Shown here one piece after another: positions 35,511 through 51,208 of a stretch of 64,000 nucleotides of DNA. The translations under genes and the position numbers were made by a program. The stretch comes from Peptacetobacter sp. (GTDB taxonomy: Bacteria; Bacillota; Clostridia; Peptostreptococcales; Peptostreptococcaceae), in NCBI RefSeq assembly GCF_029264495.1, contig NZ_JARIBH010000007.1:1636-65635 (forward strand), read 5' to 3'. Positions within the stretch are counted from its first letter, which is position 1. The number at the start of each line of letters is the position of its first letter. The notes under the pieces are model-generated. The model had not been told where the DNA came from. It did not search any database and saw only the letters and a list, made by a program, of their open reading frames with translations.

Positions 35511-35570
35511 TATGAAAAACAATGATATATAATAAAATTAATTATAAATATCATAAAGGTGGCGATTGTA

Positions 35571-36296
35571 TTGAAAAAGTTTTTATTCAAAGAGGATTTA
35601 GAGCAATTTTTAAGGGAAAATAGAAGAGATAAAAAAGAAAAAATAGATTTAAAAAATACGATATTTGAAGAATTAGATTTAACAGGAATGGATTTGAGCA
35701 ATATAGATTTTGAATGGTCTGACTTTAAAAATGTAAGATTATCTCATGTAAATTTTGAAAATTCTAATTTAAGTAATGTTTTTTTAGAAAATGCAGATTT
35801 ATCCAATTCTAATTTTAAAAATTGTACAATGCATGGAACAAATTTAAGATATACAAATCTAGAAAATATAGATTTATCTGGAGCAGATATATTTTGTGCA
35901 AATTTGGAAGAAGCAAAAATGGATGGAATAAAAACAGATGAAAATACAAAGCATTATAAAATGATTTGTCCAGAAACAGGAGCTTTTTTAGGATGGAAAA
36001 CTTGTTTTAATAAAAGACTTGTTAGGCTTTTGATTCCAGCAGATGCAAGAAGAACTAGTTCAACAATGAATACTTGTAGATGTGATAAGGCAAAAGTTAT
36101 AAGTATATCTGATTCAGATGAAAAAGAAAAATTTGATGAAGCTGTATCTTATGTAGATGGGGATTTTGTATATAAAGTTGGAGAAATGGTATATGCAAAA
36201 GGATTCAATCCTGATAGATGGAGAGATTCTACAGGTGGAATTCATTTTTTTATGACTAAAGAAGAAGCTCTTGGATATTTAATGAGTATAAGTTAG
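35571..36296 (+). CDS. Pentapeptide-repeat protein with DUF5758-like C-terminal domain
   Basis: xDLxx/xNLxx pentad repeats over about 100 aa, then PETGAFLGWK...LLIPADARR...CRCDKAKV...GGIHFF. TTG 35571 after AAAGGTGG. Confidence 0.8.
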   Translation: MKKFLFKEDLEQFLRENRRDKKEKIDLKNTIFEELDLTGMDLSNIDFEWSDFKNVRLSHVNFENSNLSNVFLENADLSNSNFKNCTMHGTNLRYTNLENIDLSGADIFCANLEEAKMDGIKTDENTKHYKMICPETGAFLGWKTCFNKRLVRLLIPADARRTSSTMNTCRCDKAKVISISDSDEKEKFDEAVSYVDGDFVYKVGEMVYAKGFNPDRWRDSTGGIHFFMTKEEALGYLMSIS

Positions 36297-36425
36297 GATT
36301 AAGATAAGTTATAAAGTTTATCAGAAATTAATAGTTAAAATTGATGTAGTTTAATTTATATAATAGACATAGTAGCTATAATATGTTAATATATAATTCG
36401 AGTTGCTATGAAAGGTGGATAAAAG

Positions 36426-36599
36426 ATGAACACAATAATAATGTTGAAAAGACTTTTTGCTATATGTATATTATGTTTAGCTTCAAATATGATTGTTGAT
36501 AAAATAAATAAAGATTTAAAACTTTCAAAAGTTATGAAAAGAGTACTTTTAATAGTTTTCTATATTGGAGTAGTAGCTCTTGTAACATGGTTATTTTAA
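36426..36599 (+). CDS. 57-aa two-TM small membrane protein (not in ORF track)
   Basis: GAAAGGTGG RBS, ATG 36426: MNTIIMLKRLFAICILCLASNMIVDKINKDLKLSKVMKRVLLIVFYIGVVALVTWLF*. Confidence 0.65.
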   Translation: MNTIIMLKRLFAICILCLASNMIVDKINKDLKLSKVMKRVLLIVFYIGVVALVTWLF

Positions 36600-36654
36600 G
36601 TACAAATACATAAATTGATTTTAATTATTAAAAATTAGATATAAAATTGCCTAA

Positions 36655-36709
36655 AAAGCGTTGAGTGCTGCTTCAAATAAATGACGGTACTTGACGCTTT
36701 ATTTTTATT
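36655..36709 (+). terminator. GC-rich hairpin/terminator after the 57-aa ORF
   Basis: aaagcgttgagtgct / ggtacttgacgcttt: 15 bp with four G-U pairs valid only on + strand RNA; T-rich tail. Confidence 0.7.
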
Positions 36710-36834
36710 AAAAAATATTATCTTTAAAAAAAGAGGAATTAGTAATATAAAAATGGAAATATATAAAATACACTTCAAATATACAATTTATGAACTATAT
36801 TTTAAATTAATTGAATTTTGAGACTTTAAAATTG

Positions 36835-37004
36835 AAAATACGAATAAAAATTATAAAATATCGCTATAAACACCAAAAACACGAACAATAATCACTTGAA
36901 TTTTAAAAAATTTTTAATTATTTCAAAAAAAAACAAAAAATATATTGATAATATATGGATATTAATATAATATTTATATATAATAGTTCGTATAATGATA
37001 CGAA
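36835..37004. promoter_or_regulatory. PurBox-like sites upstream of the pur operon
   Basis: AAACACGAACAATA (36877-36890), AAAATACGAATAAA (36835-36848), and palindrome TTCGTAT-aatg-ATACGAA (36987-37004); CGAA cores as in Bacillus PurR boxes. Confidence 0.55.
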
Positions 37005-37050
37005 TTTTTGACTGAGATTAAAAGAGAGATATAAAGGAGAGGGAAGAATA

Positions 37051-47321: not shown

Positions 47322-47388
47322 AATAACGGAAAAAATCATATCGTTAAATTAAATATAAAAAAGTAAAATCGTGAATTAAATATATAAG

Positions 47389-47446
47389 AAGGACTAAATT
47401 CTTAAAAGACTACCCGCTCAAATGTCTAAAGAATTTGGTCCTTTTT
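47389..47446 (+). terminator. Terminator after purL
   Basis: aaggactaaattctt / aagaatttggtcctt stem, inner agac/gtct pairing, T tail. Confidence 0.75.
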
Positions 47447-47571
47447 AATATTTTATTTATAAATATAATAAATAAAAAAAGAGAATTAAAATTATAAAAT
47501 TAATTAAACAATAATGTTATATTTGTAGTATAATTTTAATAGATAAATTATATTTTATAAGGAGGGCAAAT

Positions 47572-48306
47572 ATGAATATAGAAAACTTTACAAAAGAGAC
47601 TTTAGAGAGCCTTCAAAAAGAATTAAGTAGTACAATAGAAAGTATAAGAAAAATAAAATTCAACGGAAATACGCTTTATATAGTAATAGATAAAGAAGAA
47701 ATAAGTCCTGAGATAATAGATATTATGAAAACATATATTATAACAAAATCAGGAATAAGCTATGGAATAAATATAGTATTTTTAAATGAAAGTGATTTAA
47801 TTGATCTTGGTCTTAGAAAAATAGCTGAAATACAAATGTCTAAGAATTTTTCAGAAGATGATAAAGAAGAAAAAGAAAGTACTATAGAAGTAAAAAGACC
47901 TGATGAAGAAAGTTCAAAATCTGAAGAAAAAGAAGAATATAAAGAAGAAGCAGATATAAATAGAATAGATGCTATGGATGTTTGGAAAGTTATGCTAGGA
48001 AGAATACAAGAACTTATAAGTCCAGCAGTATATAAAGCATTATTTAAAGATAGCAAACAAATAGATTATAAAATGGGGATAGTTTATATATTAGTTGGTG
48101 ATACTAGAGTTGTACAGATAATGGAAACACAATATTTAAGATTTTTACAAGATGTTTCAGAAGATTTATTTGGAATTAGGTTATCATTTAGATTTGTTGT
48201 AGATGAAAAAGAAAATATAAATAAAAATGATGAAGAAGTGTATCCAGCTAGTATGAATGATTTAAATGATTTTTTTACTTTTTTAAATAATATATATAAT
48301 AAATAA
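47572..48306 (+). CDS. Hypothetical protein with a DnaA N-terminal (domain I)-like module
   Basis: Residues 134-211 (VWKVMLGRIQELISPAVYKALFK...VYILVG...METQYLRFLQ...FRFVV) follow the DnaA_N pattern. No AAA+ or HTH domain; acidic linker. Confidence 0.6.
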   Translation: MNIENFTKETLESLQKELSSTIESIRKIKFNGNTLYIVIDKEEISPEIIDIMKTYIITKSGISYGINIVFLNESDLIDLGLRKIAEIQMSKNFSEDDKEEKESTIEVKRPDEESSKSEEKEEYKEEADINRIDAMDVWKVMLGRIQELISPAVYKALFKDSKQIDYKMGIVYILVGDTRVVQIMETQYLRFLQDVSEDLFGIRLSFRFVVDEKENINKNDEEVYPASMNDLNDFFTFLNNIYNK

Positions 48307-48349
48307 GGTATAAATCTAAAATACAGTTTACATAAAATTTAAGGTTGAT

Positions 48350-48406
48350 TATAGAGAAAGAGAATACTAAATTTTACAGCAGAGATTAGTATTCTCTTTT
48401 TCTATA
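48350..48406 (+). terminator. Terminator after the DnaA-N-like gene
   Basis: tatagagaaagagaatactaa / ttagtattctctttttctata, 21-bp stem with one G-U. Confidence 0.75.
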
Positions 48407-48548
48407 TAAAAAATATAATAAACTTTAAATTTAATAAATGTTCAAAGTATCTTCATTGAATAAAAAAAATTAACTGATATACTTAGTATATAAGAAAATA
48501 ATAGCTTGTTATTAATTAAAATAGACTTTTAGAAATGGGGCGAAAATA

Positions 48549-49885: not shown

Positions 49886-50743
49886 ATGTTTGGGTATGTA
49901 AAAATAAATAAAATGGATTTGACATTTAGAGAATATGAATATTATAAAAGTTACTACTGTGGTCTTTGTAAAACATTGAAAAAAAATCATGGAGAAGTAT
50001 CTAGGTTTTCTTTAAACTACGACATTACTTTTTTAATAGTGCTTTTATCAGCTATATATAATCCAGAATCAGAGATTACAGAAGAAGTGTGTATAGCAAA
50101 TCCAATAAAAAAGAAAAAGGTTCAAAAAAATGAAATAACAGAATATGCAGCAGCTATGAATGTTTTACTAGCATATTTTAAATTAAAAGATAATGTAAAA
50201 GATGAAAGAAGAATAAAAGATAAAATAGCGTATAATATGTATAAAGGAAGTTTAAAAGATACAAAAAATAAGTATAAATATAAAGCAGAATATATAGAAA
50301 AATGTTTATATGAACTAGAAGTTTTGGAAGCTGAAGATTCTATAGATTTAGATGATGTATCAAATACTTTTGGAAAATTAATGGGAGAAATTTTTGCATA
50401 CAAAAAAGATGAGTATGAAGAAATTCTTAGAAATATAGGATTTAATATAGGTAAATATGTTTACATATTAGATGCTTATGAAGATTTACCTGAAGACATA
50501 GAAAAAAATAGATATAATCCATTTAAAGAATATAAACCCAAGAGTGAAGAATTAAAGAAAAAAGTAGATAGAATAATATCGATGAGTTTAGGAATGCTTG
50601 GTAGAAATATAGATATGTTAAATCTCAAAAGAAATGTAGGTATAATAGAAAATATAATATATTCTGGTGTATACTTAAGATATAAAAATATATTATATGG
50701 AGATGGTAAGGATAAAAATGGAGATGTAAGTCATATAAACTAA
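49886..50743 (+). CDS. DUF5685 family protein
   Basis: MFGYV, YYCGLC, LNYDITF, KLKDNVKDE, YILDAYEDL..D..KNRYNP. Confidence 0.85.
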   Translation: MFGYVKINKMDLTFREYEYYKSYYCGLCKTLKKNHGEVSRFSLNYDITFLIVLLSAIYNPESEITEEVCIANPIKKKKVQKNEITEYAAAMNVLLAYFKLKDNVKDERRIKDKIAYNMYKGSLKDTKNKYKYKAEYIEKCLYELEVLEAEDSIDLDDVSNTFGKLMGEIFAYKKDEYEEILRNIGFNIGKYVYILDAYEDLPEDIEKNRYNPFKEYKPKSEELKKKVDRIISMSLGMLGRNIDMLNLKRNVGIIENIIYSGVYLRYKNILYGDGKDKNGDVSHIN

Positions 50744-50767: not shown

Positions 50768-51208
50768 ATGTACGGTGAAGCTATAAATAGAAATACATAC
50801 AATGAAGCTAGAAGATTAATATCTAATGGAAAATTTTCTGAAGCATATAGAATTTTAAAAGAAGTAATTTCAAGTGATAGAACTGCTGAATGGTTTTTCT
50901 TAACAGGAATGGCAGCTATGAAAATGGGTAGATATGATGAAGGTGAAGATTATATAAAAAGAGCAAGATTTATGGATCCAGAAAATAGAGAATATGATGA
51001 AGCGTATAATCAATTTAGTTCATATAGAAATGATTATGATAATAGAGCTAGATACTACAATGAAAGAAGAAGATATGATTCTGGTGGATGCTGTTGCAAT
51101 CCTTGTTGCTGTTGTTGTGGAGACGATTGTGCGAATACATGCTGTCAGTTATGGTGTTTAGATTCATGCTGTGAATGTATGGGTGGAGATTTTATAACTT
51201 GTTGTTAA
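50768..51208 (+). CDS. TPR protein with cysteine-rich C-terminal tail
   Basis: AEWFFLTG...ARFMDPENREY TPR; 17 Cys in the last 39 aa, ending FITCC. Confidence 0.85.
   Translation: MYGEAINRNTYNEARRLISNGKFSEAYRILKEVISSDRTAEWFFLTGMAAMKMGRYDEGEDYIKRARFMDPENREYDEAYNQFSSYRNDYDNRARYYNERRRYDSGGCCCNPCCCCCGDDCANTCCQLWCLDSCCECMGGDFITCC

Follow-up and report, generated by a model that had tools for sequence, protein, structure and literature searches.

The gene at positions 47572-48306 (+ strand) of the 64,000-nucleotide stretch of Peptacetobacter sp. DNA analysed here (contig NZ_JARIBH010000007.1; the whole stretch is called the window below) encodes a protein of 244 amino acids (aa), residues 134-211 of which are confirmed, by remote homology together with the predicted fold, to be a true, diverged homologue of domain I of the bacterial replication initiator DnaA. 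The protein consists of an N-terminal alpha/beta domain (N-domain), a disordered acidic linker, the DnaA domain I-like domain (C-domain) and a short amphipathic tail helix. It is encoded by a genuine gene that is subject to purifying selection in the core chromosome of Peptacetobacter, and it is tentatively proposed to act, as a mimic of domain I, in the protein network of replication initiation. A preliminary description made from the sequence alone had delimited the same open reading frame (ORF), with exactly these coordinates. The parts of the coding region are as follows.

47572..48306 (+): coding sequence (CDS), 244 aa, ATG at 47572 and stop codon at 48304-48306; an acidic, cytoplasmic protein with an isoelectric point (pI) of 4.6 and a net charge of -17
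47572..47853 (+): N-terminal domain, residues 1-94, alpha-beta-beta-alpha-beta-alpha; predicted by AlphaFold2 on its own with a local distance difference test score (pLDDT) of 87.6
47854..47970 (+): acidic, Glu/Lys/Ser-rich disordered linker, residues 95-133; net charge -10, pLDDT 23-30
47971..48204 (+): DnaA domain I-like domain, residues 134-211, with predicted alpha1 137-148, alpha2 151-157, beta1 162-167, beta2 170-175, alpha3 178-200 and beta3 205-210
48205..48303 (+): C-terminal tail, residues 212-244, comprising a short charged spacer, an invariant VYP and a predicted amphipathic helix at 228-242 (DLNDFFTFLNNIY)

A phmmer search against the PDB sequences identifies two chains, both from Bacillus subtilis DnaA (4tps_B and 8btg_A), with gap-free alignments over residues 134-211 (E 0.013-0.016), and when the search is started from a profile of six C-domains of the family, DnaA is the sole significant target (4tps_B, E 8.4e-4). 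The NCBIfam model of DnaA, TIGR00362, aligns through its positions 1-90 with residues 138-226 (E 9.8e-5; 21.6 bits against a cut-off of 343.9). The comparison of the C-domain profile of the family with a set of bona fide DnaA_N sequences by hhalign yields 98.7 % with E 3.9e-16 over 79 columns. A search of 1.84 billion representative proteins with the profile of the whole family reaches the N-terminus of a DnaA from Cloacimonetes (P0057) with a library-wide E of 1.2e-5, and this sequence in turn matches Pfam DnaA_N with E 7.7e-15; a wider word-indexed search with the C-domain and bridging profile likewise retrieves N-terminal fragments of Cloacimonetes DnaA only. There is no match of the window protein to Pfam DnaA_N itself (PF11638, gathering score 24.6 bits), and the C-domain of an orthologue (P0055) scores 12.7 bits. 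Two other weak matches, to Pfam TORC_C (E 5e-3) and to phrog_24632 (E 0.03), were dismissed as chance similarities within the coiled or low-complexity region.

AlphaFold2 predicts an alpha-alpha-beta-beta-alpha-beta arrangement for residues 137-210 (pLDDT ~80), and the best matches of this model in a Foldseek search of the PDB are two chains of B. subtilis DnaA domain I (4tps_B and 4tps_D, E 6e-7, template modelling (TM) score 0.86-0.87, root-mean-square deviation 2.6 A), followed by domain I of Helicobacter pylori DnaA (2wp0, TM 0.71-0.73); DciA and the nuclear magnetic resonance models of domain I from Escherichia coli and Mycoplasma genitalium are far weaker matches. The landmark residues are recognizable as well: W138, invariant in the family, corresponds to W8 of B. 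subtilis DnaA, Y188 to Y58, and F206-x-F208-V-V to 'IKFVI'. The DnaA_N likeness of residues 134-211 that had been noticed in the preliminary description, together with W138, the order of the secondary structure elements, the late Tyr and the terminal FxV, is thus recovered by profile, phmmer, hhalign and AlphaFold2 with Foldseek alike, DnaA domain I being the top match of the C-terminal half in Foldseek and significant by hhalign. The same description saw neither an AAA+ nor a DNA-binding domain, in agreement with the results from Pfam, NCBIfam and Foldseek: no match to Bac_DnaA (AAA+ domain III) or Bac_DnaA_C (helix-turn-helix domain IV) is obtained, and the protein ends 33 residues past the domain I-like module. 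Lacking both the ATPase and the DNA-binding domain, the protein cannot act as an initiator by itself.

The family is small and well conserved. Compared with the orthologue of Peptacetobacter sp. AB845, the ratio of non-synonymous to synonymous substitution rates (dN/dS) is 0.14 overall (in pairs that are further apart, the synonymous sites are saturated), with the C-domain being the most constrained region (0.07), followed by the N-domain (0.14-0.20) and the linker (0.41-0.50), the length of which varies among orthologues through in-frame indels. A word-indexed search identifies 54 homologues, all full-length and with the same architecture, including those of Peptacetobacter hiranonis (~75 % identity) and P. 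hominis (45 %), the latter labelled 'DnaA N-terminal domain-containing protein' in UniRef. An exhaustive hidden Markov model search of the 1.84 billion representatives detects three full-length clusters at 50 % identity and three marginal matches limited to DnaA_N, and a survey of one genome per GTDB species yields three Peptacetobacter loci and no others. The gene order purL, this gene, Fe-alcohol dehydrogenase (Fe-ADH) and DUF5685 is fixed in four Peptacetobacter lineages, and tblastn finds no relatives in 50,697 phage and 72,556 plasmid records. An origin from a mobile element is rejected on the basis of this null result along with the housekeeping neighbourhood, the lack of a sharp compositional boundary and the fixed synteny; the gene is a genus-specific chromosomal invention, not mobile-element cargo.

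In topology, the core of the N-domain equals DnaA domain I, except that one long helix takes the place of alpha1 and alpha2. Comparison by hhalign aligns it with the C-domain and bridging sequences over 63 columns, with the structural elements in order (21 %, E 1e-3), and the N-domain of the P. hominis orthologue (P0053) shows a sub-threshold match of its residues 30-61 (beta2-alpha3) to positions 32-64 of Pfam DnaA_N (E 1.5e-4, 21.8 bits). With genuine DnaA_N sequences, hhalign gives 4 %, and the N- and C-domains compared within the family alone give 1.7 %. A Foldseek search started with the N-domain against the PDB and BFVD returns nothing significant, with no DnaA domain I within the top 50; the best matches are C-terminal domains of MamM/CDF transporters, RbfA and KH domains (E at least 0.047, TM at most 0.47). 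These comparisons can only suggest, as a plausible scenario, that the N-domain is a second, degenerate DnaA_N-like copy that emerged via an ancient internal duplication; possibly, it functions as an oligomerisation domain. As for the second KH-like module that had been suspected in this part of the protein, the topology is compatible and sub-threshold matches exist, but neither Foldseek nor hhalign lends it significance.

Neither a signal peptide nor a hydrophobic segment was detected in the 244-aa protein, which, given its very acidic composition, is therefore expected to be a cytoplasmic protein-binder rather than a nucleic-acid binder. The linker, already recognized as acidic in the preliminary description, has a pLDDT below 50 and appears analogous to DnaA domain II, except that here it precedes the domain I-like module whereas in DnaA it follows domain I. 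In the tail, residues V223, Y224, P225, D230, N232, F234 and L238 are invariant in the family. The amphipathic helix that had been proposed at the C-terminus is indeed predicted, at residues 228-242 with a hydrophobic moment of 0.34-0.52 (0.45), but with low pLDDT; it carries no net positive charge, its hydrophobic positions are conserved, and the only basic residue is the C-terminal Lys244. A membrane-targeting function of this helix was considered and found unlikely because, being acidic to neutral, it lacks basic residues of the kind found in MinD- or FtsA-type helices. Another idea is that the tail pattern, [MI]-x-D-[LI]-N-x-F-[FL], could be a beta-clamp-binding or PIP-like motif, although the fit to the bacterial QL[SD]LF is poor.

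The proposed function is derived from the two surfaces of the C-domain, which were mapped through the gap-free alignment to B. subtilis DnaA. In E. coli DnaA, the self-association patch of domain I is located on alpha1 and includes L5, W6, Q8, C9 and L10 (PMC5448010). Its counterparts in the window protein are V137, W138, V140, M141 and L142. The alpha1 sequence, MDVWKVMLGRIQELISP, is the most DnaA-like stretch of the protein (compare LDLWNQALAQIEKKLS in B. subtilis), and the segment M135-P151 is invariant in the family except for conservative changes at positions 137 and 148, even though the orthologues are only 45 % identical overall. Because alpha1 is the most DnaA-like and nearly invariant part and carries the self-association Trp and hydrophobic residues, the most likely contact would be pairing of the alpha1 face, either with the host's DnaA domain I or with a second copy of the protein itself. 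The remodelled alpha2/alpha3 face, which in DnaA recruits DnaD or DnaB and is the docking site of SirA, DiaA and HobA, would then be either inert towards DnaD or engaged with a lineage-specific partner. The N-domain and the tail helix might mediate oligomerisation or offer another docking site, comparable to YabA or DiaA. The predicted outcome would be a modulating, in the simplest case a damping, effect on the assembly of DnaA oligomers or on helicase loading at oriC. Expression would be constitutive, from a sigma-A-type promoter, and linked neither to sporulation nor to the SOS response; as this promoter is conserved, a standing modulator of the dosage type appears more likely than an induced switch. 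According to one report and the references it gives, initiation is blocked in vivo when DnaA domain I is over-expressed by itself (PMC13270200).

Several observations weigh against a role of this domain I mimic in replication initiation, among them the state of the alpha2/alpha3 face. In B. subtilis, the interface with SirA has a core of T26, W27 and F49 and a rim that includes N47, A50, D52 and other residues, and N47D and A50V are among the changes that abolish sensitivity to SirA (PMC4285326); the substitutions T26A, W27A and F49A are each lethal, with the interaction with DnaD lost (PMC10201431), and the alpha2/alpha3 face of the E. coli protein binds DnaB and DiaA (PMC5448010). In the window protein, T26, W27 and F49 (E21, W25 and F46 in E. 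coli) are replaced by A156, L157 and R179, respectively, N47 by D177, and A50 by V180. Given that, among six diverse DnaA_N sequences, all keep the patch Trp and five keep the Phe, the replacement is specific to this family, which makes a simple competitor for DnaD- or SirA-type partners unlikely. The decoy or adaptor role in initiation put forward in the preliminary description is plausible as such, but one version of it is weakened by this replacement. The remodelled alpha3 block, D177-x-R179-x-x-QIMETQY, is invariant in the family and, judging from the sequences, the face is constrained rather than decaying. The retention of alpha1 combined with the replacement of the T26/W27/F49 patch is more in line with a modulator pairing with DnaA domain I, or with a new partner, than with a simple DnaD decoy. 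Further points on the same side are that the surfaces were judged against the DnaA proteins of B. subtilis, E. coli, Thermotoga maritima and Cloacimonetes rather than that of the host, that the conserved Trp may be partly structural, and that dimerisation through domain I is not established for the DnaA of Firmicutes (PMC5448010). Moreover, the family is confined to a single genus, so that its function must be dispensable for related bacteria; the gene lies near neither dnaA nor oriC nor any replication gene, no dnaA or replication gene is present in the window, and its neighbours are purine-biosynthesis and alcohol-dehydrogenase genes; and the support for transcription, described below, is weak because the RNA contigs are unstranded and DNA carry-over is possible.

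Alternatively, the protein may be an exapted protein-protein scaffold in which a duplicate of domain I acquired a lineage-specific task outside replication, e.g., in connection with Fe-ADH, DUF5685, sporulation or the cell envelope. An exaptation of this kind is compatible with the low identity to DnaA domain I (22-23 %), the remodelled partner patch and the genus-restricted distribution. Library-wide, no DnaA except for one fragment is found at E <= 0.001, and hence the divergence must be old or fast. The synteny with Fe-ADH and DUF5685 is fixed, and in P. hominis a gap of only 18 nucleotides (nt) to the Fe-ADH gene suggests co-transcription, whereas in three of the four lineages a strong terminator separates the two genes. 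Considering also that the best-conserved segment of the protein is the DnaA-like alpha1 and that the known occurrences of the fold (DnaA, DciA and the C-terminus of tau) all act in replication, we regard a function outside replication as doubtful. An adaptor that binds the helicase or its loaders (DnaD, DnaB of B. subtilis or DnaI), and aids or competes in helicase loading or restart, appears unlikely. The strong conservation of the alpha2/alpha3 face, the one through which E. coli domain I contacts DnaB (PMC5448010), would fit such an adaptor, but its residues differ from the DnaB- and DnaD-contacting ones of characterised DnaAs, and the gene shows no linkage to a replication gene. Foldseek does list DciA (8a3v, E 9e-3; 7ykm, E 1.2e-2, TM 0.59), and P0058, a distant relative, shows similarity (E 3.5e-9) to the C-terminus of phrog_26369, a phage 'replication initiation protein'. 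The DciA-like alternative raised in the preliminary description is nevertheless weak: the similarity is confined to the fold level (E about 1e-2, TM 0.4-0.6), the matches are far inferior to those of DnaA domain I, and no DUF721 signal is found in Pfam. In addition, Firmicutes use DnaD, DnaB and DnaI rather than DciA, which further argues against an adaptor of the DciA type.

A binder of single-stranded DNA (ssDNA) or RNA made of two tandem KH-II-like modules is highly improbable. DnaA domain I is itself KH-like, with weak binding of ssDNA reported for the E. coli domain (PMC5448010), and both domains of the window protein show weak Foldseek similarity to RbfA, the KH domain of uS3 and KhpB, but the matches to KH domains and RbfA lack significance (E at least 0.06, TM at most 0.5). 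No GXXG-type loop is present, and the charge is unfavourable, with pI 4.6 and net charge -17 for the whole protein, pI 4.9 for the N-domain and a neutral C-domain. Finally, the G+C content of 24 % (30-33 % in the pur genes) and the lack of an above-threshold Pfam match might suggest that the gene is what remains of a decaying dnaA duplicate, or that the ORF is a spurious one caused by AT richness, but this is effectively refuted by the selection analysis (dN/dS 0.07-0.14, with in-frame indels restricted to the linker), as well as by the conserved promoter, ribosome-binding site and terminator, the confident folding of both domains and the intact gene in four lineages.

The closest known counterpart of the protein is DnaA domain I (PF11638; residues 1-82 of B. 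subtilis DnaA, 4TPS and 8BTG), with which it shares, by homology, the fold (TM 0.86), the Trp of alpha1, the Glu and Tyr of alpha3 (E185 and Y188) and the beta3 motif 'F-x-F-V'. The differences are the absence of domains III and IV, the C-terminal instead of N-terminal position of the module, the T26/W27/N47/F49/A50 to A/L/D/R/V replacements and a score below the Pfam gathering threshold. The isolated domain I over-expressed in E. coli resembles the window protein in being a domain I without the rest of DnaA and provides a precedent for damping initiation (PMC13270200), with the distinction that the E. coli construct was made artificially and has the same sequence as domain I of its host, whereas the window protein seems to be a natural, diverged paralogue that also includes an N-domain and a tail. 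With YabA, it has in common a structured, possibly oligomerising N-terminal domain, a flexible linker and a C-terminal interaction domain, and with YabA, DiaA and HobA in general, small size, lack of enzymatic activity and cytoplasmic location; those regulators act on DnaA by protein contacts. However, YabA, DiaA, HobA and SirA bind DnaA, whereas the window protein imitates a part of it, and no similarity to any of the four, in sequence or fold, was found in the Pfam, NCBIfam, PDB-sequence and Foldseek results. The N-terminal domain of DciA (DUF721) and the C-terminal domain of tau (DnaX) also have the KH-like DnaA_N-type fold and use it for replication contacts, but they are weaker matches (for DciA, E 9e-3 to 1.2e-2 and TM 0.41-0.59) without a sequence signal, and DciA is not the Firmicute loader system. 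By these sequence comparisons, the protein is neither DnaA nor DciA and is unrelated to SirA, DiaA, HobA and YabA.

The phage initiators of phrog_26369 present a partial analogy in that, via P0058, they appear to be non-DnaA proteins ending in a DnaA_N-like module. P0058 is a metagenomic protein of 243 aa whose N-terminal half is coiled-coil-like and whose DnaA_N domain, at the C-terminus (Pfam E 8.7e-13), matches positions 270-330 of the 347 positions of phrog_26369; by implication, DnaA_N modules are located at the C-terminal end of some phage initiators. Such modules presumably contact the helicase or a loader, as DciA contacts DnaB. Unlike these initiators, the window protein has no match to this PHROG, no phage or plasmid relatives and no origin-binding domain. 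In the full-text literature, coverage of which was incomplete, no characterised stand-alone or 'domain I-like' DnaA_N protein was found.

DnaA domain I is a hub for the regulation of the start of bacterial replication, and to our knowledge, the characterised DnaA regulators (SirA, DiaA, HobA, YabA, Hda and others) are all unrelated DnaA-binding proteins. If the domain I mimic indeed acts in initiation, a natural, selected stand-alone domain I would represent control by a mimic or a dominant-negative subunit, a principle for which artificial over-expression of the domain is the only example to date, and would provide a handle on whether and how the Firmicute domain I self-associates and how far the alpha2/alpha3 face can be re-targeted. 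A more specific version of this proposal, speculative and on balance improbable, is an 'anti-initiator': a paralogue composed of two tandem diverged domain I modules and a domain II-like linker that would cap or cross-link DnaA domain I via alpha1, with a dead or re-targeted partner face, and so set the initiation frequency in a spore-forming clostridial lineage without SirA. If correct, this would be the first DnaA regulator that mimics the N-terminus of DnaA instead of binding it via an unrelated fold. The general impact is limited by the presence of the family in one genus only, and the mimicry idea, if true, is of interest to replication specialists. P. hiranonis is an important gut commensal in dogs, cats and humans, where it converts bile acids, and genus-specific genes for growth control are of interest. 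Should the protein be unconnected with replication, it would still illustrate clearly how the DnaA_N fold can be exapted.

The gene is flanked by the following signals.

47385..47452 (+): intrinsic terminator of the upstream purL and pur operon; hairpin at 47385-47447 of -25.9 kcal/mol, z -6.4, followed by a U-run
47505..47534 (+): sigma-A-type promoter, TAAACA-18 nt-TATAAT; 10/12 matches to the consensus
47559..47566 (+): ribosome-binding site AAGGAGGG, 5 nt before the ATG; aaGGaGg is kept at the orthologous loci
48350..48406 (+): intrinsic terminator of the gene; hairpin of -26.6 kcal/mol, z -6.9, followed by a U-run

The -10 block, 'TTTG[TA]AGTATAAT', and a -35 element resembling TTGAAA or TTAAAC can be aligned at all five loci examined, from four lineages. 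The hairpin after purL, which is also retained at two other loci (L006 and L007), isolates the gene from pur read-through. Hairpins of this kind are also present after the orthologues in L007 (z -5.6) and L001 (z -3.9), where, as in the window (48307..48548), the spacer is long and contains a strong terminator between the gene and Fe-ADH. In P. hominis (L004 8711..8730), by contrast, the orthologue ends 18 nt before the Fe-ADH gene and the terminator is absent. Accordingly, the description of the gene as monocistronic with its own terminator applies to this species, with its promoter and flanking terminators, but does not extend to P. hominis; the transcription unit is not identical between Peptacetobacter species. 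Between -450 and +300 of the orthologous loci, no DnaA, Spo0A or LexA box and no CodY-like motif was found, save for an intragenic TGTCGAA in L001. Near the gene, a search for non-coding RNA yields nothing but chance matches of microRNA models on the terminator hairpin. An antisense ORF of 98 aa, rich in Ser, Leu, Ile and Phe, lies within the gene (47760..48056, - strand); it shows no sign of being a gene and most likely results simply from the AT richness and the many Glu and Lys codons of the coding strand.

The orthologue of the gene appears to be transcribed, on weak evidence. In two small RNA-Seq cDNA libraries, contigs are located inside a P. hiranonis-like orthologue and over its 3' end, terminating in the terminator region, at a depth similar to that of purL and Fe-ADH in the same libraries. 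Two 'transcriptomic' runs of canine metagenomes (X25 and X26) have uniform depth over genes and spacers and are uninformative with respect to transcript boundaries. In the RNA runs examined, no reads match the sequence of the window itself, the matches in run X4 being short chance pieces.

The window belongs to the core chromosome, with nearly all genes on the leading (+) strand and a positive GC skew throughout, and includes rho, prmC, prfA, sua5, the atp operon, purEFMNHDL and genes of the phosphotransferase system. The low G+C content of the gene is shared by its downstream neighbours, which are also AT-richer than the pur genes. Directly after the DUF5685 gene (49886..50743), a protein of 146 aa is encoded at 50768..51208 (+), with tetratricopeptide repeats in its N-terminal half and an extraordinarily Cys-rich tail (…GGCCCNPCCCCCGDDCANTCCQLWCLDSCCECMGGDFITCC). 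The pair of the DUF5685 gene and a gene of ~145 aa recurs in the Peptacetobacter loci L001, L004 and L005 and could be metal-binding, spore-associated or a peptide precursor. In P. hominis ZHW00191 (L005 10051..13176), genes for an aminotransferase, a protein without known function and ribulose-phosphate 3-epimerase are inserted between Fe-ADH and DUF5685; these are absent in the syntenic metagenomic contig L004. With Rfam, no match is obtained in the ~750-nt spacer upstream of purE (36297..37050) even at E <= 1, and none reaches the gathering score across the 64-kb window, so that the purEFMNHDL operon has no recognisable purine riboswitch. Just upstream of the pur cluster, at 35559..36296 (+), a pentapeptide-repeat protein fused to DUF5758 is encoded.

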